Source: a virus. Taken from it: a stretch of 64,000 nucleotides of DNA. Of this stretch, positions 2,924 through 34,615 are shown one piece after another; the first letter of the stretch is position 1; each line of letters begins with the position of its first letter. Below the pieces are notes generated by a model. That model worked only from the letters and a program-made list of their open reading frames with translations. It had not been told where the DNA came from and searched no databases. The DNA lies in the IMG/VR virus record IMGVR_UViG_3300005617_000004, positions 1-64,000 of that record, one strand, 5' to 3'. A program made the translations under genes and the position numbers.

Positions 2924-4105
2924 ATGAAGTTCATCGTCGGCAAGAGATACCCCCTACGAAGCGGTGATACGGCGGTTTATCGCGGGCTGACAAGCGAATG
3001 CTCGCCGGGCAACGCGTTCGCTGCTAGCCATCCCTTCTGGTTCCACCACTGGAACGGCACGCCGTTCAGTGCGCGTGGCGACGGATCCCAAGGCGCCTGC
3101 CACGGCCGGGGTGGCTATGATATCCTGTCCGACACCCCGATCGACGAGCCGCTGCAGCTCGAAGCCGGCAAGCGGTATCGCCGGCGCGATGGCGAGATCA
3201 CGGGGCCTCTGGAGGATAACGGCGCGGCTTACCACCCAAGCTCTCGGTTCTTTGACCCGGAGGGCGAGCGTTCCTACTTCTTCACGGGCTGCTACCGCGA
3301 CACTCCGGGGACGAGCTCTCTCGACCTCATCGAACTCTACGAAGACCCCAAGGAACAACCCATGACCGCCAAGCGCTCCCTGCCCACCGTCAGCCTCGAC
3401 GACATCTTCAAGAAGGAGCCATGCTGGATCGCCCAGATGGGCCCGGTCGCCGCGGCGAAGAAGATGACCGAGATGGTTCCGGAGGGCAAGGTGTCACTGC
3501 GGACGTTGAATCATCTCGTGATGACGGAGCGGATCAACGCCGCGGAAGCGGACTGGGTCGACGAGAAGACGGGGTTGAGCAGAGACTACGACGGTCCACG
3601 GGGGCGCGGCAGCTGGGGCAGCGACTTTGCCAAGCACCTCGACAACTGGGAGAACCCGAAGCCCAAGCCGCGTACCCTCGCCGACCTCAAGCCGGGGTCC
3701 TATTTCACCCACGGCCAGGACCGCTTCCTGGTGCTGGAGCGGAACGACCATCTCAGCGCGTTTCTGGCACATCACCCGGAGGAGGTTCCGGTGCTGGTCG
3801 TCAAGGAGTCGCGCGTGAGCTATTTCACAGGCAGCACGGCCCTGACGCGCTGCGCCGACATCGTCGAGCCGGGCAGCAAGCCGGTCGTCCAGAAGGCGTT
3901 CAGCGACCTGAAGACCGGTGACTGCTTCAAGTTTGGCGGTTATGTGTTCCTGCGGACCGACGACAATAGCGGGGGAGCGATAGCGGTGACAGTGAGCGCC
4001 CCTATGCGGGGCGTCACGGTGTTGAAAGACAGTCTCACGCACCACAACCTCCTCACGACCCCCGTCGTCTACCTGCCCAACTTCGTGCTTGACCCGACTC
4101 CCTAG
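2924..4105 (+). CDS. hypothetical multidomain protein with repeated small beta modules
   Basis: 393 aa; repeated GKRY.xR.G and F/LxDLKxG motifs. Confidence 0.65.
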   Translation: MKFIVGKRYPLRSGDTAVYRGLTSECSPGNAFAASHPFWFHHWNGTPFSARGDGSQGACHGRGGYDILSDTPIDEPLQLEAGKRYRRRDGEITGPLEDNGAAYHPSSRFFDPEGERSYFFTGCYRDTPGTSSLDLIELYEDPKEQPMTAKRSLPTVSLDDIFKKEPCWIAQMGPVAAAKKMTEMVPEGKVSLRTLNHLVMTERINAAEADWVDEKTGLSRDYDGPRGRGSWGSDFAKHLDNWENPKPKPRTLADLKPGSYFTHGQDRFLVLERNDHLSAFLAHHPEEVPVLVVKESRVSYFTGSTALTRCADIVEPGSKPVVQKAFSDLKTGDCFKFGGYVFLRTDDNSGGAIAVTVSAPMRGVTVLKDSLTHHNLLTTPVVYLPNFVLDPTP

Positions 4106-4654: not shown

Positions 4655-6344
4655 TATGCCCCTCCCTCCTCTGTGGGTCTTCCTTCTGGCGCTGATCCCC
4701 CTCGGCGTGTGCCTTGCCGTGTGGCTGTTGGTGACGGTTACCCGTTGTTCGGCCAAGGCGCTGCCGGAGTCGAAGCCCCTGAAGCCGCCCGGCACCTACG
4801 TTGTTGACCCGTATCCGGCTGACGCTGACGCCCAGACCCGCGCGCAGCCCCTCGACGACATCCCCGACACCTACACGATCGTCGAGTTCCCGAGCACGGG
4901 TCGCGCGTTCTACATGCCGAAGTTCAAGGGACGGTTCATCTTCAGCTGCTTTCGTAGCTGCCCGATCGACACCTCCGACCACTCGGCGCACGGCATCGAG
5001 TGCAGGACGAAAGAGCAGGCCATCCAAGTCATCCGCGACCACATGCTCTGGAAAGCTCCACGCCCGCTGCCCCGCGACAAGTGGAAGGACTGACCATGAC
5101 CCACATCAAGTTCGACCACGTCGTCATGTTCGACCTCGTCCAGGCGCTGGAGCACTGGCGCCTTCTTGGCAACTTCGACGGCAACGTCGCCCACCTGTTC
5201 GAGGACCCCTGACATGCGCAACATCACCGACGTGATCACCGTCATCCTGAGGCTGATCCCCGACACCGAGATCGACTTCCGCAAGGGCCTGAAGCTGGTC
5301 GCCGAGCGCGCCGACTACACGGCCCCCGAGATCATCGACCACCGGTGGGCGGAGGGCAGCGACCTGCTGGACAAGTATCTGCCCGAGCCGGGGTTCCTGA
5401 ACGGCTGGCAGCGGCAGGTGGTGGAGCTGTGGACGGGGAGGGAGCTGTGATCGCCGACCAACGCAAGATGAAGAAGCCGTGCCGCTACTGCGGGTCGCTG
5501 GTGCGGTACGAGAGCTATCAGGGTGAATCGTGGATGCGCGAGGGCGTCGACGGGACGATCCGGAGAAACCTCTTGGCGTATCTTGAGGCGCACCCGGTTC
5601 CGTGGCCCTATTGCTGCACGACCTGTGTGGCTTTGGAGCAGGAGGACGCGTGCGAGACGATCCGCATGAAGTGGAAGAAGACCATGGTGCGCAAATGAAA
5701 CTCTCCTTCCGCTTCGGCACCAAGGCCCTTGGCGTCGGCATCTTCTACCATGCCCAGAAGCGGATCCTGTACGTGCACCCGCTGCCGCTCGTGGCGGTGC
5801 TGGTGGACTGTGGCTGCCGGCACGTGTGGAACTTCACGTCGGTCTACACCGACGGGTGGCTGTGCTGTAAGTGCCGCAAATCCGGCGGATATGGAAGCGA
5901 GCCGCAGCCATGACCCTCCCACCCCCGTGGTCCCTGCTCGGCGCCCAGCTCGCCCTGGAAGGCCGGCCGATGCGTACCCACCACGAGCGCGTCGAGGTGC
6001 AGCTGGACGGCACCTGGACCTCGGTGTTCCTGCAGTCGTGGCTGTTGCCGGGCCAGGACCCCACCCTGATCCACGACCCGGGCACCGCCGCCAAGAACGA
6101 GCACGCGCAGTTCGTGGAGCGCGCCCTGCGCGAGGCGAAGCAGGGCGGCATCTTCGTCGGTTCACCGTTGGTCGACGCTCGCTGGCTGTCGTGGCTGGCG
6201 CCGGTGAGATGGCCTAAAGGGGGTCGATAAGGGGTGTTTACGTGCGCGGTGTGACACACTTAGGACGATGGTGAGCGAGAAAAGACTATGGAGAGGCTAG
6301 GGAGCTGTAGCTTTCTGGCACCACCAGCCTGGAAAGGGCACCAC

Positions 6345-25909: not shown

Positions 25910-26586
25910 TCCGCGTCTACATCGGCACGCAGCCCGAGCAGAAGCTCGCCTGTGAGGTGCTGAAGTATTCGATCACTGCGCGTGCGACGGAGCCAGTGTC
26001 GTTCTTCGAGATCACCGACAAGACCAACCGCTACGCGATGACGGGCTTCTCCTTCGCGCGCTGGTACGTGCCGAAGTTGGCGAAAGAAAACGGCGATCAG
26101 ACGGCGATCTACATGGACGCCGACATCGTCGTGCTCGGCGACATCGCGGCCCTTGAGCACGCTGCTGGCGAGAAGCCCACGCTCGCGCGGCCGACATCCG
26201 ATGGGCGGTACTTCACCAGCGTGATGCGACTCAACATCGCGCGCATCAACTGGGATGTGGGCGGTCTTCTCGTCGACGGATTCGCCGGGCTGCCCGAGTG
26301 GCTGCACAACGCAATCATGTGGGCCGCGTCGAACTCTCCGTGGCGCGCCGACTTCGGCGAACTTAGCGCGCGCTGGAACGACCTGGACTTGGTGAAGGAT
26401 GGTACGCAAGCATTGCACTACACCGACCTCAAGCGGCAGCCCTGGCGGTATGCGGGGCACCCGTTTGGCTACGTGTGGCAAGCCGAGTTGAAGTCGGCGC
26501 TTGCAGACAAAGCGATCTCGATGGCGCTGGTGCAGGACGAGATCGCGAGGGGGCACGTGCGCGGCGATGTGCTGACGGTGACCTGA
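25906..26586 (+). CDS. glycosyltransferase family 8-like
   Basis: T.FSFARW.VP, AIYMDAD, WN.LD, LHYT...QPW. Confidence 0.8.
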   Translation: MIRVYIGTQPEQKLACEVLKYSITARATEPVSFFEITDKTNRYAMTGFSFARWYVPKLAKENGDQTAIYMDADIVVLGDIAALEHAAGEKPTLARPTSDGRYFTSVMRLNIARINWDVGGLLVDGFAGLPEWLHNAIMWAASNSPWRADFGELSARWNDLDLVKDGTQALHYTDLKRQPWRYAGHPFGYVWQAELKSALADKAISMALVQDEIARGHVRGDVLTVT

Positions 26587-26645
26587 TATTGCGCGGACAA
26601 GAGCGCCGCGCGCACTATCGGGTCATCGGCGCTGAAGAAGACCCC

Positions 26646-26672
26646 TTGACACCCTAGCGGGCTCGATAGTGT
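26646..26672 (+). promoter_or_regulatory. promoter of tRNA array 1
   Basis: TTGACA and TAGTGT (15-bp spacer); leader ATG 7 nt downstream, i.e. near-leaderless. Confidence 0.6.
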
Positions 26673-26679
26673 CGCGGGC

Positions 26680-26808
26680 ATGGACCTCATACTCCCATCC
26701 AGCAGAACAGCGAAAGCAATGACGTGGCATCGCCCCGTCGTGGCCGGTTGCTTTATTGCTGGTGATCGCACCGGCAATGAAAAGCCGGGACGGTTCGGGG
26801 GTTCGTGA
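26680..26808 (+). CDS. attenuator leader peptide 1 (MDLILPSSRTAKAMTWHRPVVAGCFIAGDRTGNEKPGRFGGS)
   Basis: 42 codons, 37 distinct; lies between promoter and terminator; its end overlaps the antiterminator. Confidence 0.75.
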   Translation: MDLILPSSRTAKAMTWHRPVVAGCFIAGDRTGNEKPGRFGGS

Positions 26809-26874
26809 GGCACTAGGACCGTAAGTCCACCCTCTCCGAACCCCGGGCCCGCAAAGGCTCGGGGTTTTTCTTTC
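26798..26874 (+). terminator. attenuator 1: antiterminator/terminator
   Basis: terminator AACCCCGGGCC-CGCAAA-GGCTCGGGGTT+TTTCTTT (26839-26873); GGGGTTCG (26798) pairs with CGAACCCC (26837). Confidence 0.85.
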
Positions 26875-26900
26875 TATAACTCTATACTGTGGCCTGTCAC

Positions 26901-26974
26901 GGCTGAGTCGCTCAACGGCAGGGCGCACGTTTGAAACACGTGAGACGGTGGTTCGACTCCACCTTCAGCCACCA
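26901..26974 (+). tRNA. tRNA-Phe(GAA)
   Basis: cloverleaf, loop TTGAAAC, CCA. Confidence 0.9.
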
Positions 26975-26977
26975 TAT

Positions 26978-27053
26978 TGGTGTGAAGCATAACGGGTTAT
27001 GCACCTCTCTGTTAAAGAGGACCAACGGGGTTCGAGTCCCTGCGCACCAGCCA
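26978..27053 (+). tRNA. tRNA-Asn(GTT)
   Basis: cloverleaf, loop CTGTTAA, CCA. Confidence 0.9.
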
Positions 27054-27082
27054 TTTTCTTACGTAGCAGTATTTCTTGTTAC

Positions 27083-27157
27083 GCGGTCGTAACTCAATCG
27101 GAAGAGTCCCGCCTTCTAAGCGGAGAGATACGGGTTCGAGCCCTGTCGGCCGCGCCA
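27083..27157 (+). tRNA. tRNA-Arg(TCT)
   Basis: cloverleaf, loop CTTCTAA, CCA. Confidence 0.9.
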
Positions 27158-27161
27158 TTCT

Positions 27162-27233
27162 CGCGTCGTAGCTCAGCGGAAGAGCAGCTCGGTCCTAACG
27201 AGAAGGCCAGAGGTTCGATCCCTCTCGACGCGG
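27162..27233 (+). tRNA. tRNA-Arg(CCT)
   Basis: cloverleaf, loop GTCCTAA; CTA instead of CCA. Confidence 0.8.
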
Positions 27234-27242
27234 CTATTTCAC

Positions 27243-27318
27243 GGTCCTATCGTCTAGCAGCCTAGGATGACTGGTTCTCAGCCAGTAGACACGAGTGCGA
27301 ACCTCGTTAGGACTACCA
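27243..27318 (+). tRNA. tRNA-Glu(CTC)
   Basis: cloverleaf, loop TTCTCAG, CCA. Confidence 0.88.
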
Positions 27319-27320
27319 TC

Positions 27321-27484
27321 GCCAGTGCAGCACGGAAGGACGTGCAAACAAGTGCAACGCTTATCAGGATCGACCGGCGGCCGACGGGCGCCTGCATCAT
27401 GAATAATGGGCACAGTAGGTCCCTCCCTGGACGTGTCACCCAATAGCCCGACGGGGCAGCCGGTGTCGAACCCGGCCACTGGCC
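27321..27484 (+). ncRNA. tRNA-like RNA with ~110-nt insert replacing the anticodon arm
   Basis: acceptor GCCAGTG/CACTGGC, D arm GCAC/GTGC, T arm GCCGG/CCGGC. Confidence 0.6.
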
Positions 27485-27589
27485 TTTTTCAGCGCGCCCC
27501 TGCTCCGGGGGCCTTCTCAGCGCGACAGTCAGGCGATACGAGGAGTACGCCGTGTACGAAAGCATAAGCTGTCATGGAGACTTCTTCAC

Positions 27590-27661
27590 GGCGCTATCGT
27601 CCAACCGGAAGGATACGAGGCCTTCAACCTCACGATGTCGGTTCGACTCCGACTAGCGCTA
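27590..27661 (+). tRNA. tRNA-Glu(TTC)
   Basis: cloverleaf, loop CCTTCAA. Confidence 0.82.
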
Positions 27662-27670
27662 CTTTTCCAC

Positions 27671-27746
27671 GCCCGAATAGATCAATGGATAGATCGCGAC
27701 GCTACGGACGTCGAGGCTGAAGGTTCGAGTCCTTCTTCGGGTACCA
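27671..27746 (+). tRNA. tRNA-Arg(ACG)
   Basis: cloverleaf, loop CTACGGA, CCA. Confidence 0.9.
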
Positions 27747-27752
27747 CTTCAC

Positions 27753-27827
27753 GCGGGATTAGGTCAGTGGCAGACCGTCTCTTTTACATGGAGAATGCCG
27801 GGGGTTCGATTCCCTCATCCCGTACCA
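27753..27827 (+). tRNA. tRNA-Val(TAC)
   Basis: cloverleaf, loop TTTACAT, CCA. Confidence 0.9.
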
Positions 27828-27834
27828 GTTTCAA

Positions 27835-27910
27835 TGGTCTGTAGCTCATCGGCCAGAGCGCTTCCCTGACACGGAAGAGGCAGTGAGTTCAATTCTCGCC
27901 AGACCAACCA
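27835..27910 (+). tRNA. tRNA-Val(GAC)
   Basis: cloverleaf, loop CTGACAC, CCA. Confidence 0.9.
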
Positions 27911-27970
27911 ACGGTCTGCGGTGGCCACCGCAGCGTAAGCCCGGGAGTGATTCTCGGGGCCACGTTTCAT

Positions 27971-28045
27971 GGGGGCTTAGTGATAATGGTAGCACGTCTG
28001 CCTTGCAAGCAAACAGCGGGAGTTCGATTCTCCCAGCCTCCACCA
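27971..28045 (+). tRNA. tRNA-Ala(TGC)
   Basis: cloverleaf, loop CTTGCAA, G3:U70, CCA. Confidence 0.9.
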
Positions 28046-28096
28046 GATCCGCTTACCGCCCCTGGTCACGGATGTAAAACTCAGACCGGGGCACCT

Positions 28097-28171
28097 GTCT
28101 CCATAGTCCAGCGGAACGGACACTTCCCTGTCACGGAAGAAACCCGAGTTCGACTCTCGGTGGGGACGCCA
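28097..28171 (+). tRNA. tRNA-Asp(GTC)
   Basis: cloverleaf, loop CTGTCAC, G73, CCA. Confidence 0.9.
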
Positions 28172-28176
28172 TTTAC

Positions 28177-28253
28177 CGGAATGTAGCTCAGTCTAGTAGA
28201 GCGCTTGCTTCGGGAGCAAGAGGCCGTGGGAGCAAAGCCCGCCATTCCGACCA
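28177..28253 (+). tRNA. tRNA-Pro(CGG)
   Basis: cloverleaf, loop TTCGGGA; atypical T loop AGCAAAG. Confidence 0.85.
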
Positions 28254-28260
28254 TTCACAT

Positions 28261-28337
28261 CAGACCGTAGCTCAGCCTAGGAGAGCGCCACTTTGGGGTA
28301 GTGGAGGTCGCAGGCGCACATCCTGTCGGTCTGACCA
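28261..28337 (+). tRNA. tRNA-Pro(GGG)
   Basis: cloverleaf, loop TTGGGGT; atypical T loop CGCACAT. Confidence 0.85.
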
Positions 28338-28343
28338 TTTTCA

Positions 28344-28415
28344 GGGGGAGATCCGGGTCCGAATCCCGGTCTCGCGGCGACGGTCGCGAGTCTCGTCTAA
28401 CGGTAGGACGCCCCC
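28344..28415 (+). ncRNA. circularly permuted tRNA-like RNA (T arm, closed acceptor hairpin, D arm)
   Basis: GGGGG...CCGGG-TCCGAAT-CCCGG, CTCGCGGC-GACG-GTCGCGAG, GTCTAACGGTAGGAC, CCCCC. Confidence 0.65.
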
Positions 28416-28451
28416 GCTTTCATTCACCAACACCTCGGAAAGGAGGTCACT

Positions 28452-29000
28452 ATGCCCGGCGGACGCTGCCTCGTGCTCAATGCGAGCTTCGAGTTCCTTC
28501 ACATCACCAACACGTGGTTCGATTCGCTTCGTCTGCTTCGTCGCGGCAAGGTGACCGCCATCAAGAACTACCCGGTGCCGGCCAGATCCGAGAAGGACCT
28601 CGCGCTGATCCCGGCGGTGGCGGTGCTCAAGACCTACATCTCGACGCCGCGCAAGAAGAGTCACTTCACGCTGCCGACCCACCGCAACATCCTGATCCGC
28701 GATGGGTTCAAGTGTGGGTACTGCGCGTGCAAGCTGACGCTCGGCACGGTGACCAAGGATCACGTGATCCCGCGGTCGAAGGGCGGTCAGGACGTGCTGA
28801 CCAACGTCGTGGCGGCTTGCAAGCGGTGCAACACCCGCAAGGCGGACAAGACGCCCAGCGAGGCTGGCCTGACGCTGCTGGCGGTGCCGAGGGCGCTCAA
28901 CGAAGAAGAGAAGCTGACGATCGTGGTCAAGACGCACAAGGCACCCGAGCGCGCATTGTGGAAGGAGGCGCTCGAGGAGTTGAAGGTGAAGCTGTTCTGA
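28452..29000 (+). CDS. HNH endonuclease (McrA-like)
   Basis: LVLNAS, RD...CGYC, T.DHVIPRSKGG, N.V.AC..CN..K; strong RBS AAGGAGGT. Confidence 0.9.
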   Translation: MPGGRCLVLNASFEFLHITNTWFDSLRLLRRGKVTAIKNYPVPARSEKDLALIPAVAVLKTYISTPRKKSHFTLPTHRNILIRDGFKCGYCACKLTLGTVTKDHVIPRSKGGQDVLTNVVAACKRCNTRKADKTPSEAGLTLLAVPRALNEEEKLTIVVKTHKAPERALWKEALEELKVKLF

Positions 29001-29031
29001 TTTCTCCGGGCCGCCCATGGGCCCGGTTTCT

Positions 29032-29106
29032 CGGGGTGTAGCTCAACAGTAGAGCAACGCGTTTGGGGCGCGAAGGTAGCTGGCGCGACACCAGTCATCC
29101 CGACCA
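29032..29106 (+). tRNA. tRNA-Pro(TGG)
   Basis: cloverleaf, loop TTTGGGG, CCA. Confidence 0.82.
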
Positions 29107-29109
29107 TTT

Positions 29110-29191
29110 GAGTGAAGTGTTCTAGCCAGCCGGGCTGGCGGCGGATTGCAACCCCGCTGACATTGCCGTTCGACTCGGCCTTCACTCTCCA
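29110..29191 (+). tRNA. tRNA-Cys(GCA), 8/4 acceptor/T-stem
   Basis: GAGTGAAG/CTTCACTC, loop TTGCAAC, T stem GCCG/CGGC, U73-CCA. Confidence 0.8.
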
Positions 29192-29195
29192 TCAC

Positions 29196-29270
29196 GCGCC
29201 CGTAGCTCAATAGTAGAGCACTCCGCTCTTATCGGAGGGGTTGAAGGTCCAAGTCCTTCCGGGTGTACCA
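29196..29270 (+). tRNA. tRNA-Lys(CTT)
   Basis: cloverleaf, loop CTCTTAT, CCA. Confidence 0.88.
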
Positions 29271-29275
29271 TCTCC

Positions 29276-29349
29276 GTCCGCAAAGCGTTACAGTAGCGTA
29301 CTACCTTGCCATGGTAGGGGCCCGAGTGCGACTCTCGGTGCGGACTCCA
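29276..29349 (+). tRNA. tRNA-Gly(GCC)
   Basis: cloverleaf, loop TTGCCAT, U73-CCA. Confidence 0.88.
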
Positions 29350-29354
29350 TTTCT

Positions 29355-29430
29355 GCCGTCGTAGCTCAGCTGGAAGAGCATCTCTTTCCGAAAGAGAAGG
29401 CCAGAGGTTCGACCCCTCTCGGCGGCGCCA
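29355..29430 (+). tRNA. tRNA-Arg(CCG)
   Basis: cloverleaf, loop TTCCGAA, CCA. Confidence 0.9.
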
Positions 29431-29435
29431 TTCAC

Positions 29436-29507
29436 CGCCATGTAGCTCAATAGCGAGAGCGAGTCTTTCATACGGACAGGATCGGGGTGCGATTCCCTGC
29501 TTGGCGA
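29436..29507 (+). tRNA. tRNA-Met(CAT) elongator (or Ile2)
   Basis: cloverleaf, loop TTCATAC; no encoded CCA. Confidence 0.78.
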
Positions 29508-29513
29508 CTTCAC

Positions 29514-29589
29514 TGGCCATTCGTCTAACGGAAGGACCGCCTTCTTATAAATGGCAGATCGACGGGTTCGACTCCCTCATGGCCAACCA
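29514..29589 (+). tRNA. tRNA-Ile(TAT)
   Basis: cloverleaf, loop CTTATAA, A73-CCA. Confidence 0.78.
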
Positions 29590-29593
29590 TCAC

Positions 29594-29668
29594 GCTGTCG
29601 TAGCTCAGTTGTAGAGCGCCGCTTTCGTACTGCGGAGGTCGCAGGATCAACCCCTGTCGACAGCACCA
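29594..29668 (+). tRNA. tRNA-Thr(CGT)
   Basis: cloverleaf, loop TTCGTAC, CCA. Confidence 0.85.
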
Positions 29669-29674
29669 ATTCAT

Positions 29675-29750
29675 GCGGATGAAGCAGCACTGGCGCTGCG
29701 CCTGCCTTCCAAGCAGGAGAAAGCGGGTTCGAGCCCCGTCGTCCGCTCCA
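29675..29750 (+). tRNA. tRNA-Gly(TCC)
   Basis: cloverleaf, loop CTTCCAA, U73-CCA. Confidence 0.9.
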
Positions 29751-29753
29751 TAT

Positions 29754-29827
29754 GCTGGTCTGAGGTAACGCTAGCCTGCGGCCCTTGTATCGCCGACGCC
29801 AGGGTTGAACTCCCTGGACCAGCACCA
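29754..29827 (+). tRNA. tRNA-Thr(TGT)
   Basis: cloverleaf, loop CTTGTAT, CCA. Confidence 0.82.
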
Positions 29828-29834
29828 TCTTCAC

Positions 29835-29906
29835 GCTGCCATAGCCGAGTAGTTAGGCGCCTTCTTGGTAAGAAGGAGATCGTGGGTGCAAATCCCACTG
29901 GTAGCT
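29835..29906 (+). tRNA. tRNA-Thr(GGT)
   Basis: cloverleaf, loop TTGGTAA. Confidence 0.88.
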
Positions 29907-29911
29907 CATTT

Positions 29912-29985
29912 GCACCTATAGCTCAATGGCAGAGCTTTCGTCTGATACACGAAAGACCGATGTTCGATTCATCGTAGGTGCACCA
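29912..29985 (+). tRNA. tRNA-Ile(GAT)
   Basis: cloverleaf, loop CTGATAC, CCA. Confidence 0.9.
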
Positions 29986-29989
29986 TCAT

Positions 29990-30060
29990 AGGAAGCGTCG
30001 CTGGGCGAGTAGCGGACTCCAAACCCGCTGGGCCGCGTTCAAATCGCGGGCTTCCTGCCA
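29990..30060 (+). tRNA. tRNA-Trp(CCA)
   Basis: loop CTCCAAA, very short D arm, G73-CCA. Confidence 0.8.
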
Positions 30061-30067
30061 TCTACAT

Positions 30068-30142
30068 GTTGTTCGTCGTCTAGCAGCAAGACGCTGGTTT
30101 GTGGCGCCAGAAACGCGGGTGCGATTCCCGTCGAGCAACCCA
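30068..30142 (+). tRNA. tRNA-His(GTG)
   Basis: G-1:C73, loop TTGTGGC, CCA. Confidence 0.88.
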
Positions 30143-30147
30143 TTCAC

Positions 30148-30223
30148 GGAGCAGAGGCGGTACAGGTTCCGCACCGAGTTTTTACCTCGGGGTCAGTGGG
30201 TTCGAGCCCCACCTGCTCTACCA
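30148..30223 (+). tRNA. tRNA-Lys(TTT)
   Basis: cloverleaf, loop TTTTTAC, CCA. Confidence 0.88.
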
Positions 30224-30251
30224 TTGACACCCAGACAGACCACAGTACAAG
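30224..30251 (+). promoter_or_regulatory. promoter of tRNA array 2
   Basis: TTGACA-16 bp-TACAAG; leader ATG 9 nt downstream. Confidence 0.6.
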
Positions 30252-30260
30252 GCGATCATC

Positions 30261-30344
30261 ATGAACGCGCTATTGCTCCAATCCTCGCAGTCATATCTGC
30301 TCTCGCTGAGTCAGCGAGTGGGGTTCGGAGCTACGTTGCGCTGA
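30261..30344 (+). CDS. attenuator leader peptide 2 (MNALLLQSSQSYLLSLSQRVGFGATLR)
   Basis: codons 4-18 are all Leu/Gln/Ser/Tyr; overlaps antiterminator. Confidence 0.8.
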   Translation: MNALLLQSSQSYLLSLSQRVGFGATLR

Positions 30345-30398
30345 GGTGCCATCCCTCCCACGTTCTCCCGAACCCCAGGCCGACCGCCTGGGGTTTTT
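30319..30398 (+). terminator. attenuator 2: antiterminator/terminator
   Basis: terminator AACCCCAGGC-CGACC-GCCTGGGGTT+TTT (30371-30398); TGGGGTTCGG (30319) pairs with CCGAACCCCA (30368). Confidence 0.88.
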
Positions 30399-30433
30399 GC
30401 GTTTGACAACTCTATATCGTGGCAGCGAAACAC

Positions 30434-30517
30434 GTACGAGTGGCGGAATCGGCATACGCGCCAGCTTGAGGTGCTGGTGTCTTCGGACAACTCCGGGTTC
30501 AAGTCCCGGCTCGTACA
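30434..30517 (+). tRNA. tRNA-Leu(GAG)
   Basis: long variable arm, loop TTGAGGT. Confidence 0.9.
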
Positions 30518-30522
30518 GTCAA

Positions 30523-30609
30523 TGGGGAGTGATGGAACAGAAGACATGCCAGTTTCAGAAGCTGGTGCCCTAAGCAGGCGTGAGAGTGCGAATCTCTTCT
30601 CCCCAACCA
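30523..30609 (+). tRNA. tRNA-Leu(CAG)
   Basis: long variable arm, loop TTCAGAA, CCA. Confidence 0.88.
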
Positions 30610-30612
30610 TTT

Positions 30613-30695
30613 GCGCCCGTGTCGTAACGGAAGCCGAGGCATGCTCAAACCATGCTGCCCTTCGGGGCGTACAAGTTCAACTCTTGTCGGGCGCA
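30613..30695 (+). tRNA. tRNA-Leu(CAA)
   Basis: long variable arm, loop CTCAAAC. Confidence 0.88.
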
Positions 30696-30702
30696 GTCAT
30701 TT

Positions 30703-30791
30703 GGATCTTGCAGCGGGATGGACACCGCACCTGTTTGCTAAACAGGCGGGCCCCACAAGGGCTCCCGGTTCGACTCCGGCAAAATCCGCCA
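30703..30791 (+). tRNA. tRNA-Ser(GCT), 8/4 fold
   Basis: loop TTGCTAA, long variable arm, T stem CCGG/CCGG, G73-CCA. Confidence 0.85.
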
Positions 30792-30795
30792 TCAC

Positions 30796-30884
30796 GGGAA
30801 GTTTCATAAGCCGGACCGGGTCCGGGCCACGCTGTAAACGTGCTCCCTAACGGGCGAGGTGTTCGACTCACCAACTTCCCACCA
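30796..30884 (+). tRNA. tRNA-Tyr(GTA), 8/4 fold
   Basis: GGGAAGTT/AACTTCCC, loop CTGTAAA, T stem GGTG/CACC, CCA. Confidence 0.82.
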
Positions 30885-30889
30885 TTCAT

Positions 30890-30974
30890 GGAAGGCGAAG
30901 CAGCAGCGGTGCGGCATCGGTCTCGAAAACCGAGGTGCTCTTCGGGGCATGGTGTTCGACTCACCCGTCTTCCT
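30890..30974 (+). tRNA. tRNA-Ser(CGA), 8/4 fold
   Basis: GGAAGGCG/CGTCTTCC, loop CTCGAAA, long variable arm. Confidence 0.85.
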
Positions 30975-30979
30975 CACAT

Positions 30980-31055
30980 TCAGGGATCGTTCAACTTGGT
31001 AGGACTCCGCGCTCTGGACGCGAGAATGCAGGTCCGAATCCTGCTCCCTGAACCA
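30980..31055 (+). tRNA. tRNA-Gln(CTG)
   Basis: cloverleaf, loop CTCTGGA, CCA. Confidence 0.88.
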
Positions 31056-31061
31056 CTTCAC

Positions 31062-31135
31062 TGACGCTTCGACTAATTTGGTAAGTCCCCTCGCTTTGAA
31101 CGAGGACAATCAGGGTTCGAGTCCCTGGGCGTCAA
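31062..31135 (+). tRNA. tRNA-Gln(TTG)
   Basis: cloverleaf, loop CTTTGAA. Confidence 0.88.
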
Positions 31136-31643
31136 TTTCTCTGAGTCGGCGCTTCCAGAAAAATATAGTAGAGCGGCCTGCGTCGAACTGCTTCATACAG
31201 ACCGCCGCCGATGCTTTGGGGTGCGCGCGGATGAAGGCTGCGAACCGATACATTATGTCAGGGCGCTCTATGCCGTGGTAGAAATGGTTGGAGTGGTAGC
31301 CCCCGCTGCATTTACGAGAGCAGAACAGCGGGCGCCGCTGCGCGAATCGCACTTTATGAGGCTTTCGCATGAAGTAGATTTTGCAATTCGGGCATAGGAC
31401 TTTTACGGGCGGTAGGCGTTTGTGAAGACCGTTGTGGGCCTGCACGCTCATGAGTTGCAAGTTTTCAATTCGGTTATCGTGGCCGTCATGGTTTATGTGG
31501 TGTACGATCTCTTCACTGATAAGGGCACGTCCTAGGAACTGCTCCATAACGTAGCGGTGTTCCAGCTGTCGATCCGTCTTACTCCAGTGCGCCATTTTGT
31601 AGGGGCCATGTTTGTACACGGCTCGGGGCTTACACGTATGCAT
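31110..31643 (-). CDS. HNH homing endonuclease
   Basis: EHRYVME..LGR.L...EIVHHIN....DNRIENL; CPNC and FCSRKC; low GC. Confidence 0.85.
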   Translation of the reverse strand: MHTCKPRAVYKHGPYKMAHWSKTDRQLEHRYVMEQFLGRALISEEIVHHINHDGHDNRIENLQLMSVQAHNGLHKRLPPVKVLCPNCKIYFMRKPHKVRFAQRRPLFCSRKCSGGYHSNHFYHGIERPDIMYRFAAFIRAHPKASAAVCMKQFDAGRSTIFFWKRRLREIDAQGLEP

Positions 31644-33263: not shown

Positions 33264-33385
33264 GCTCTTGACTCAATAGCATTCTCACTAGGGTAGCCAG
33301 GGACCGTCGGCTGGGCTGATAACCTAACACGCCGACTCATCACCGCGTATCGTGGGCTGGCGGTCACCATTCTTTCACATCACAT

Positions 33386-33462
33386 TGCGGGATGGAGTAG
33401 CAGCTAACTCGTTAGCCTCATAAGCTAAAGATCGCAGGTGCCAAGTCCTGCTCCCGCAACCA
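33386..33462 (+). tRNA. tRNA-Met(CAT), initiator-like body
   Basis: TGCGGGATGGAG start, loop CTCATAA, CCA; lacks the 3 G-C anticodon-stem pairs. Confidence 0.8.
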
Positions 33463-33465
33463 TAT

Positions 33466-33546
33466 GCTTGGGTAGCTCAGCGAAAGAGCACTCGGTCCTG
33501 TAACGGGACTGAGAGGTCGGTGGTTCAAGTCCATCCCCGAGCGCCA
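33466..33546 (+). ncRNA. tRNA-like RNA with extended 8-10 bp anticodon stem
   Basis: normal acceptor/D/T arms and CCA; CTCGGTCC-TGTAACG-GGACTGAG. Confidence 0.7.
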
Positions 33547-33592
33547 GTTCGTGTCCACGACACAAACGTCAGCCCCAGCCGCAGGTGGGTCC

Positions 33593-33762
33593 TAACAGCG
33601 GCGCAGGAAACCTCACTAGTATCCTACTAATCGGGTCGATCCTTGGTGCGGTCACGAGCCAACGCGTGACGTCATTCGGGTTTCGACGTTGCGGCAGGGA
33701 CGGCCCGCAGCAATGCGCCCGGGATCGACTGCCGGTGTTTTCAGCTGCGCCGAAACCCGTTG
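33593..33762 (+). ncRNA. putative structured RNA (multibranch)
   Basis: CGGCGCAG/CTGCGCCG, GTCGATCC/GGATCGAC, GTCACG/CGTGAC, GTTGCGG/CCGCAGC pairings. Confidence 0.45.
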
Positions 33763-33777
33763 TACCAAGGAACACCC

Positions 33778-34203
33778 ATGGCCCGCAAGCGCGCGAACAA
33801 GACCGCCAAGTTCGGCCCCAACGTGTCGTTCTGCTCCGACGGCAAGACCGGCGACTTCGCGCTCGACGTCAAGGCGTTCGGTCTGAACGTCCAGGCGCAG
33901 GGCAACACCAAGAAGCTGCGGATCAGCAAGCTGTTGAGCCACATGCCGGTGATCGGCAAGATGGTCGGCGGTTTGGGCGACGCGGCGCCGACCCCGAGTG
34001 CCGAGCCGACCGACGCCGAGATCCTGGCCCGGTTCAAGACCCGGGACACGTACGTCGCGTACCTGTCGCAGAGGATATACGCCTTCAACGCGCAGCAGGC
34101 TCAAGACAAGGCAGCGTTCGACGCGCAGATGGGGAAGGCCTGCGAGCGTGGGTCCGTCCTGTACCCAGAGCCGAAGGCGAAGCCGGCCGCCAAGAAGTCC
34201 TGA
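33778..34203 (+). CDS. hypothetical basic protein
   Basis: AAGGA RBS; typical codon usage. Confidence 0.65.
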   Translation: MARKRANKTAKFGPNVSFCSDGKTGDFALDVKAFGLNVQAQGNTKKLRISKLLSHMPVIGKMVGGLGDAAPTPSAEPTDAEILARFKTRDTYVAYLSQRIYAFNAQQAQDKAAFDAQMGKACERGSVLYPEPKAKPAAKKS

Positions 34204-34205
34204 CC

Positions 34206-34535
34206 ATGTACGAAATCGCCCCGACCACTGTCGCCTTCCCGCGCACCCCAACCGTGCTCGCCGTCCTGCAGCTCCGGTTCCCGGACCACTACAGCGTCAG
34301 CAAGCTGCCCCTGGCCGACGCCGACCGCGACCAGCTGGCGATGCGGCTCGAGTCCGCGATGATGGAGGTGCACCGGCTGAGCGGCATCGTCGACAAGAAC
34401 CCGGACGGGTATCCGGACCCGGCGACCGGCACGGTGGTGAAGCCGGAGTACCTCGTGCTACGGCTCAGCAGCGCGGTGCGGGACGCCAACGTGATGCGGG
34501 AGTATCTCGCGCTCAATGATGTGTGGAGACACTGA
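34206..34535 (+). CDS. hypothetical protein
   Basis: follows previous stop by 2 nt. Confidence 0.6.
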   Translation: MYEIAPTTVAFPRTPTVLAVLQLRFPDHYSVSKLPLADADRDQLAMRLESAMMEVHRLSGIVDKNPDGYPDPATGTVVKPEYLVLRLSSAVRDANVMREYLALNDVWRH

Positions 34536-34538
34536 CAC

Positions 34539-34615
34539 GCCCCCGTAGCACAACGGCAGTGCAGCCGCCGACTAGAGGCGGAAGGCCGCGGGTTCGATTC
34601 CCGTCGGGGGTTCCA
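34539..34615 (+). tRNA. atypical tRNA, apparent anticodon CTA (amber)
   Basis: GCCCCCG/CGGGGGT, U73-CCA, stem CCGCC/GGCGG around loop GACTAGA. Confidence 0.6.

Follow-up and report, generated by a model that had tools for sequence, protein, structure and literature searches.

Transcription attenuation by leader peptides is textbook knowledge for amino-acid and aminoacyl-tRNA synthetase genes. Among the enterobacterial attenuators, multivalent ones combine the codons of several amino acids in one leader, as ilvGMEDA does with Ile, Leu and Val and thr with Thr and Ile; trp, his, leu and pheA are further examples. The pheST attenuator of E. coli (pheM leader) responds to the level of charged tRNA-Phe, and leaderless attenuators of mycobacteria that are built on a short open reading frame (ORF), the polycysteine upstream ORFs, reportedly control cysteine-related operons. 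Here we describe a candidate attenuator in front of viral tRNA genes. The DNA analysed, referred to as the window, comprises the first 64,000 nucleotides of an IMG/VR virus record (IMGVR_UViG_3300005617_000004) that is complete at 109,520 bp and carries direct terminal repeats. Within it, a promoter-like TTGACA box, an ORF of 27 codons, an intrinsic terminator and an antiterminator of 10 bp occupy positions 30224–30420 (unit 2; coordinates in Table 1). With a probability of roughly 0.75, judged from the sequence and from in silico folding, we take unit 2 to be a ribosome-mediated (leader-peptide) transcription attenuator gating the phage tRNA block behind it.

Unit 2 shares with the enterobacterial amino-acid operon attenuators a short ORF rich in several regulatory amino acids, the alternative helices 1:2, 2:3 and 3:4, an intrinsic terminator, and an antiterminator predicted to be favoured when the ribosome stalls. 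It differs in its phage context and in that no known leader is recognizable in it: an Rfam scan of 26500–31300 at E values up to 5 returned tRNA-clan and chance-level matches only, and no Leu, His, Thr, Trp or Phe leader family. It differs further in that tRNA genes and not biosynthetic enzymes would be regulated; the phage sensor would report the supply of the gene products themselves, a direct feedback, and a single leader of this family could sample 16–19 amino acids. Like pheST, it would place attenuation on a component of the translation apparatus, but pheST controls a synthetase, concerns one amino acid and is chromosomal. T-box leaders, too, switch between terminator and antiterminator according to the state of a given tRNA; they bind the uncharged tRNA directly, however, through a specifier codon and the T-box bulge and without a ribosome. 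The mycobacterial polycysteine ORFs resemble the phage unit in their very short or absent 5′ untranslated region and in a tiny ORF whose codon content sets downstream expression, except that the operons they are said to control are cysteine-related and do not consist of tRNA genes.

Among published systems, the trn operon of Anabaena PCC 7120 comes closest, a silent long tRNA array that is induced under translational stress (PMC8421152, PMC10272220). There, too, an accessory tRNA array is turned on when translation is impaired, but control is exerted at the promoter via direct repeats and the repressor TrcR, and a leader or attenuation is mentioned in neither PMC8421152 nor PMC10272220. A literature search brought up no description of tRNA genes being controlled by a leader peptide. 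In silico, unit 2 presents the short ORF, the codon enrichment, the terminator, the mutually exclusive antiterminator and the dependence of the fold on ribosome position that are expected of a leader-peptide attenuator; the departure from the definition lies in the regulated genes. Because these are eight tRNA genes and not genes of biosynthesis, transport or a synthetase, the novelty of the unit would be that a known attenuation mechanism is applied to tRNA genes, a proposal that has its own comparative evidence and is strongly supported in silico.

The composition of the leader is the first line of this evidence. The ORF and its run of 15 consecutive Leu, Ser, Gln or Tyr codons are present exactly as listed in the original prediction, which had been made from the letters alone. 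This run is the longest of its kind in all six frames of the 109.5-kb genome, where the runner-up has 7 codons; the maximum in 200 block-shuffled genomes was 11, attained once. Given that Leu, Ser, Gln and Tyr make up a share of 0.21 of the proteome, a run of 15 is expected with a probability of ~8e-11 per position. Leu occurs in it six times, Ser five times, Gln three times and Tyr once, in 11 different codons. The block behind the leader contains exactly eight tRNAs, namely three for Leu, two for Ser, one for Tyr and two for Gln, and 15 of the 17 sensor codons of leader 2 belong to this set (P ~7e-9 against the proteome).

It had also been claimed that all eight downstream anticodons have a cognate codon in the run. 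This holds only if wobble is admitted: a Watson–Crick codon is present for six of the eight, and the pairs GCT/AGT and GTA/TAT need G:U wobble. Moreover, once 15 Leu/Ser/Gln/Tyr codons are given, coverage of 8/8 with wobble has P ~0.24 and is not significant alone. In view of these two wobble matches and this P value, the match between leader and tRNAs is a signal at the level of the amino acid and not of single isoacceptors. Isoacceptor-level matching and the choice of synonymous codons, not being significant, were dropped as evidence.

The second line is the RNA itself. The proposed 10-bp complementarity between the segments beginning at 30319 and 30368 was confirmed as perfect (30319–30328 against 30368–30377), the latter segment overlapping the 5′ arm of the hairpin at 30370–30396. 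The resulting duplex between regions 2 and 3 has −21.2 kcal/mol, equalled by 0.4% of shuffled leaders, and all three alternative helices 1:2, 2:3 and 3:4 are present. The hairpin and its twin at 26838–26867 are the two strongest terminator-like sites within 26–35 kb. Folding at increasing transcript lengths in the absence of a ribosome gave 1:2 as soon as region 2 emerges and 1:2 plus 3:4 as the final state (−61.1 kcal/mol). With the transcript ending immediately ahead of region 4, helix 2:3 has an advantage of 4.7 kcal/mol.

In further in silico folding the ribosome was represented by a 27-nt mask whose A site was stepped along the leader codons. Region 3 of unit 2 paired with region 2 at A-site codons 1–17 and was no longer paired with it at codons 18–27, the probability of 2:3 being ~0.7 at codons 1–16, 0.54 at codon 17 and 0–0.12 at codons 18–27. 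Hence, the sensor block ends exactly where a stalled ribosome begins to cover region 2. Both states of the switch were thus obtained with the ribosome mask, whereas full-length equilibrium folding yielded mostly the terminator; the latter calculation is uninformative as a test of the switch, the terminator being the most stable state.

According to our model, transcription would start at the unit's own sigma-70-like promoter, read-through from block 1 being also possible, and a ribosome would translate the 27-codon leader. When Leu, Ser, Gln and Tyr codons are decoded fast, this ribosome would get to the last third of the ORF and cover region 2, leaving region 3 to pair with region 4; the terminator would form and RNA polymerase would halt ahead of the tRNA genes. 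Scarcity of a matching aminoacyl-tRNA would slow decoding and stall the ribosome inside codons 4–17. Region 1 would then be occupied and region 2 free, the 10-bp 2:3 antiterminator would form before region 4 is made, and the polymerase would continue into the eight tRNA genes. With no ribosome on the leader, the 1:2 helix would form first and the terminator afterwards. The outcome would be a negative feedback on the supply of exactly those tRNA classes that are encoded downstream. Translation of the leader, the start of transcription, the direction and size of the response and its physiological trigger are what we infer here; the trigger could be a mismatch between the host tRNA pool and phage codon usage, or a loss of host tRNAs in the course of infection or defence.

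A paralogue, unit 1, precedes the larger tRNA block 1. Both units have the TTGACACCC box, the ATG, regions 2 and 3, the terminator and a 17-nt motif, and unit 1 has a GGTTCGG / CCGAACCCC pair like that of unit 2. Masked folding of unit 1 gave 2:3 at codons 1–36 and not at codons 38–43. The two blocks together cover all 20 amino acids, none of which is represented in both. Leader 1 contains all 16 block-1 amino acids, Gln and Tyr being absent from it, and its 42 codons are of 37 different kinds. Of the 28 block-1 anticodons it covers 26, a coverage matched by 0.03% of 42-codon windows in the genes of this phage and by 0.2% of random stop-free sequences. Used as a query in a large protein collection, the leader-1 peptide gave no candidates; such leader small ORFs are not called as genes there.

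Searches for relatives by near-identity of the array against cultured phages returned no match, and the distant mode returned generic tRNA similarity only; the neighbouring glycosyltransferase has homologues down to 64–83% identity. Alignment-based searches with the locus yielded one near-identical metagenome contig (L116) and otherwise distant viral fragments without tRNAs, and Chlamydiae genomes. The terminator pattern alone was too common, and there were no relatives among the matches listed. Two further phage contigs, G004 and G005, were found by an architecture pattern describing the switch and were then extended, 7–12 kb being fetched; a pattern derived from window leader 2 retrieved G004 only, which was already known. 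In the fetched regions G004 and G005 have nothing in common with the flanks of the window but an HNH gene inside the array, whose homologues there are 30–35% identical to that of the window. As this homologue is the only protein common to the three array regions, it suggests that these arrays travel with homing endonucleases. What defines the unit family across these otherwise dissimilar contigs is the GGGGTTCG / CGAACCCC switch.

Six units were compared, two from the window (Win-1 and Win-2), three from G004 (A, B and C) and the single unit of G005, which has one array. In 6/6 units the leader includes the amino acids of its own tRNA block, and the way in which the tRNAs are divided differs between the phages. 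In G004 no amino acid of a block is absent from its own leader (4/4 for A, 9/9 for B, 9/9 for C), and most sensor codons fall within the set of that block, namely 13/16 in leader A, 22/23 in B and 17/22 in C (P 2e-7, 6e-6 and 1.5e-3, respectively). The 32-codon leader of G005 contains 19 of the 20 kinds of amino acid in 31 codons (P ~0.001–0.003). When residues were shuffled among the leaders within one phage, the observed match was reached in 0 of 200,000 trials, for G004 and for the window each. Rare residues accompany their tRNA genes: the Cys codon and the Cys tRNA belong to leader and block 1 in the window but to A in G004, and the codons and tRNAs for Gln belong to leader and block 2 in the window but to B in G004. 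The attenuator suspected in the original prediction, here read as one of the trp type, is thus supported by the three helices, by the paralogue before block 1 and by co-variation of leaders and tRNAs in six units of three phages.

The geometry is shared as well. The ORFs start with ATG and have 23–42 codons, and the distance from stop codon to terminator stem is 25–29 nt in 6/6 units. The 2:3 duplex exceeds that of shuffled leaders in 5/6 units (P 0.002–0.022), G004-C retaining it via two double substitutions, and in the terminators of five units three base pairs carry compensatory changes. The leader peptides of Win-1 and G005, the two broad leaders, cannot be aligned although their geometry is kept; hence, composition and geometry are conserved and not the peptide sequence. 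In all units region 2 lies in the 3′ end of the ORF, so that a ribosome which finishes translation removes the antiterminator and not the terminator. This is difficult to reconcile with a translated sensor that has a different output, be it that the stall alters RNA processing, RNA stability or the access of Rho, or that the sign is reversed and the stall leads to termination. Some observations would suit such an output: the tRNAs need to be cut out of the transcript anyway, the terminator prevails in most states when the full-length transcript is folded at equilibrium, and G004-B lacks a canonical U tract. A reversed sign, however, would stop tRNA synthesis just when tRNAs are scarce, and we regard a different output as unlikely.

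Win-2 and G004-A have homologous 3′ halves in which an indel shifts the frame through region 2; their ORFs stop at the same spot. An open frame from ATG to a stop 25–29 nt ahead of the terminator is kept in 6/6 units, including the pair with the frame-shifting indel, which speaks against a conditional terminator that is controlled without translation. In such a case a T-box-like binding of tRNA or an RNA-binding protein could set the switch, or the 140-nt transcript could be a small RNA with a function of its own. A terminator/antiterminator pair alone is indeed no proof of a ribosome, and the start-codon contexts are weak. Yet leaders and tRNAs correspond at the level of the amino acid within a single reading frame, and such a correspondence can be read by translation only. 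Furthermore, no Rfam family, the T-box (RF00230-type) included, matched in 26500–31300, which comprises both units, at E up to 5, and a T-box leader would be far longer than this RNA of only ~140 nt. A switch that works without translation therefore appears very unlikely to us.

The TTGACACCC 9-mer occurs in three copies in 109.5 kb, two of which head units 1 and 2, and in both units the ATG follows 34–37 nt past the box. The transcription start of unit 2 is predicted to lie 0–3 nt ahead of the ATG, which would make the mRNA near-leaderless. The putative promoter of G005 consists of TTGTCA, a 17-nt spacer and TATATC, with the ATG 6 nt later; since the leader begins 6 nt after a good −10 box, a leaderless start is suggested in G005. 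Between terminator and first tRNA, the 17-nt motif is present in only two genome copies, one per unit, and as a variant in L116; it may serve as a basal promoter or as a signal for processing. A pattern search of IMG/VR with the motif gave chance matches only. A TTGACA or TTGACC hexamer stands right after the terminator U tract in three units (window, 30404–30409; L263, ~2114; L262, minus strand, reverse complement ~8865), and the hexamer after the U tract of G004-C is too near the first tRNA for a −35 role.

In a rival explanation the hairpin simply ends tRNA block 1, transcription of block 2 begins at another promoter, for which the motif and its TATA-like core are a candidate, and neither the ORF nor its composition has a function. 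The −10-like core of the motif is located 7–10 nt before the first tRNA in both units, chance ORFs are abundant in high-GC DNA (the window has ~64% GC), and the codon diversity of the leaders resembles that of unselected sequence. But the TTGACACCC box lies upstream of the terminator and would on this explanation give rise to only a ~140-nt transcript, and unit 1 has the same terminator yet no tRNA block upstream that it could end. The motif has no usable −35 box, L116 carries a 20-nt insertion just before it, and G004-A lacks it, the tRNA there beginning 6 nt past the U tract. The Leu/Ser/Gln/Tyr run, the antiterminator in 5/6 units, the constant spacing between stop codon and terminator and the co-variation with the tRNAs would all be left unexplained. 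We consider a plain terminator highly improbable.

Several observations nevertheless weigh against leader-peptide attenuation. The −10 boxes are weak and a promoter scan made no call on them, and leader 1 has no Shine–Dalgarno sequence, so that its translation rests on the presumed leaderless start. The equilibrium folds of the full transcript favour the terminator at most ribosome positions, and the switch would therefore have to be kinetic, as in trp. Region 2 of unit 2 ends 13 nt before the stop, and a ribosome paused at the stop codon would cover it only partly. With the peptide fixed, anticodon matching (P 0.23) and codon choice (P 0.51) are no better than expected, and high codon diversity of the leader is expected of unselected sequence also. 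Three of the sensor codons, CTA, TCC and TCA, have no tRNA in the phage; the suggestion that they mark lost tRNA genes finds some support in G004, where the block behind the homologous leader has Leu(TAG), Ser(GGA) and Ser(TGA), and in G005, which has Leu(TAG) and Ser(TGA). In G004-B the U tract is non-canonical and the 2:3 duplex is not significant against shuffles. L116, the sole close relative, is too similar to inform, with a single-base change in unit 1.

Why phages carry tRNA genes and when these are used is a long-standing question. Phage tRNAs have been tied to the escape from tRNA-targeting defences in work that did not address the control of their expression (PMC10264068, PMC11555353). 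A codon-matched leader attenuator would be a protein-free and self-correcting answer, a tRNA class being made only when ribosomes are short of it. It would extend attenuation to tRNA genes and would show a leader sampling up to 19 amino acids at once. More speculatively, and with less confidence than the attenuator itself, phages that possess large tRNA arrays may carry block-specific decoding-speed sensors that turn a block on only when the host supply of its class fails, also where tRNA-cleaving defence nucleases cause the failure; the attenuators might then be the sensing arm of a counter-defence and the array its effector. If this is true, the division of the tRNAs into blocks (class II Leu/Ser/Tyr together with Gln or Cys on one side, the remainder on the other) would give the phage separate responses to different insults. 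Leader small ORFs would also provide a practical annotation rule, and the unit a compact natural part for sensing decoding speed.

A similar arrangement in a cultured phage makes the proposed attenuation of tRNA genes testable now. In Caulobacter phage phiCbK (L264, JX100813.1) depositor-annotated terminators are found directly before tRNA blocks, each preceded by a small ORF. These small ORFs are rich in the blocks' amino acids, and one of them is the annotated 45-residue gp083. The unit sequences of the window, G004 and G005, in contrast, are unrelated to phiCbK.

Table 1. Positions of the features in the window, with the tRNA content of the G004 blocks and the sites in phiCbK.
Feature	Position	Strand	Description
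Unit 1	26646-26895	+	Same −35 box, leader ORF, region 2, terminator and 17-nt motif as unit 2; ahead of 28-tRNA block 1
Leader ORF 1	26680-26808	+	42 codons
Unit 1 region 2	~26791-26810	+	
Unit 1 terminator	26838-26867	+	12 bp
17-nt motif (AACTCTATA, two variable bases, GTGGC)	30408-30424 and 26878-26894	+	In the gap from terminator to first tRNA
tRNA block 1	26901-30223	+	28 tRNAs, 16 amino acids, none for Leu, Ser, Gln or Tyr
HNH endonuclease gene	28452-29000	+	Interrupts tRNA block 1
TTGACACCC, −35-like box of unit 2	30224-30232	+	9-mer
TACAAG, −10-like	30246-30251	+	Weak
Leader ORF 2	30261-30344	+	ATG, 27 sense codons in all, TGA stop
Sensor block of leader 2 (codons 4–18)	30270-30314	+	15 consecutive Leu/Ser/Gln/Tyr codons
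Region 1	30275-30285	+	Predicted to pair with region 2 (anti-antiterminator) in minimum-free-energy folds; encloses two small hairpins
Small hairpin within 1:2	30301-30317	+	Perfect 7 bp; possible pause signal
Region 2	30319-30331	+	In leader codons 20–24; partner of region 1 or region 3
Region 3	30367-30380	+	Antiterminator partner of region 2 and 5′ arm of the terminator
Intrinsic terminator of unit 2	30370-30400	+	11-bp stem (30370-30396), 5-nt loop, U tract; 25 nt past the stop codon
tRNA block 2	30434-31135	+	Leu(GAG), Leu(CAG), Leu(CAA), Ser(GCT), Tyr(GTA), Ser(CGA), Gln(CTG), Gln(TTG)
G004 block A			Leu x5, Cys, Ser x3, Tyr
G004 block B			Asn, Gln x2, Gly, Thr x3, His, Ala, Phe, Pro, Arg
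G004 block C			Trp, Met, Lys x2, Arg x3, Glu, Asp, Val, Ile, Gly
phiCbK small ORF and terminator sites	3597-3755, 5060-5370 and 6850-7210 of L264		

The tRNA genes of the window were called by ARAGORN, with default and relaxed thresholds, and by Rfam. All are on the + strand, at 26901–31135, with three more in 33386–34615. Relaxed ARAGORN and Rfam add six tRNAs that default ARAGORN missed, namely Asn, Pro(GGG), Pro(TGG), Cys, Thr(TGT) and Tyr. The tRNA-Tyr at 30797–30884 was found by relaxed ARAGORN only and missed by the tRNA model of Rfam; its acceptor stem is perfect over 7 bp, its anticodon loop reads CU-GUA-AA and its CCA end is encoded. A tRNA with the anticodon CTA, labelled Pyl by ARAGORN and possibly an amber suppressor, is located at 34539–34615, away from the main array. 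Gating is not universal among the tRNA groups of this phage. The region upstream of the separate Met(CAT)/Leu(TAA) pair (33386) was checked and has a promoter-like box only, and neither a leader ORF nor a terminator; the box, at 33266–33300, consists of TTGACT, a 15-nt spacer and TAGGGT.

A minority of the proteins have a family match, namely a helicase, HNH endonucleases, a resolvase domain and the glycosyltransferase; most have none. A second HNH endonuclease gene stands at the end of the array (31110–31643, minus strand). In L116 the leader and the glycosyltransferase gene that flank the array are 94–99% identical to the window. Its segment 4300–4700, compared with window 26901–27240, points to a mosaic exchange of tRNAs, the Phe, Asn and two Arg genes differing strongly. 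The 271-nt spacer at 27319–27589 within block 1 was considered as a third attenuator and rejected, as its small ORF does not match the tRNAs that follow and its fold is no better than that of shuffled sequences. The small ORF has 15 codons, and the spacer, which also includes a hairpin and its U tract, is ~99% identical in L116 despite the strongly diverged tRNA genes just upstream.
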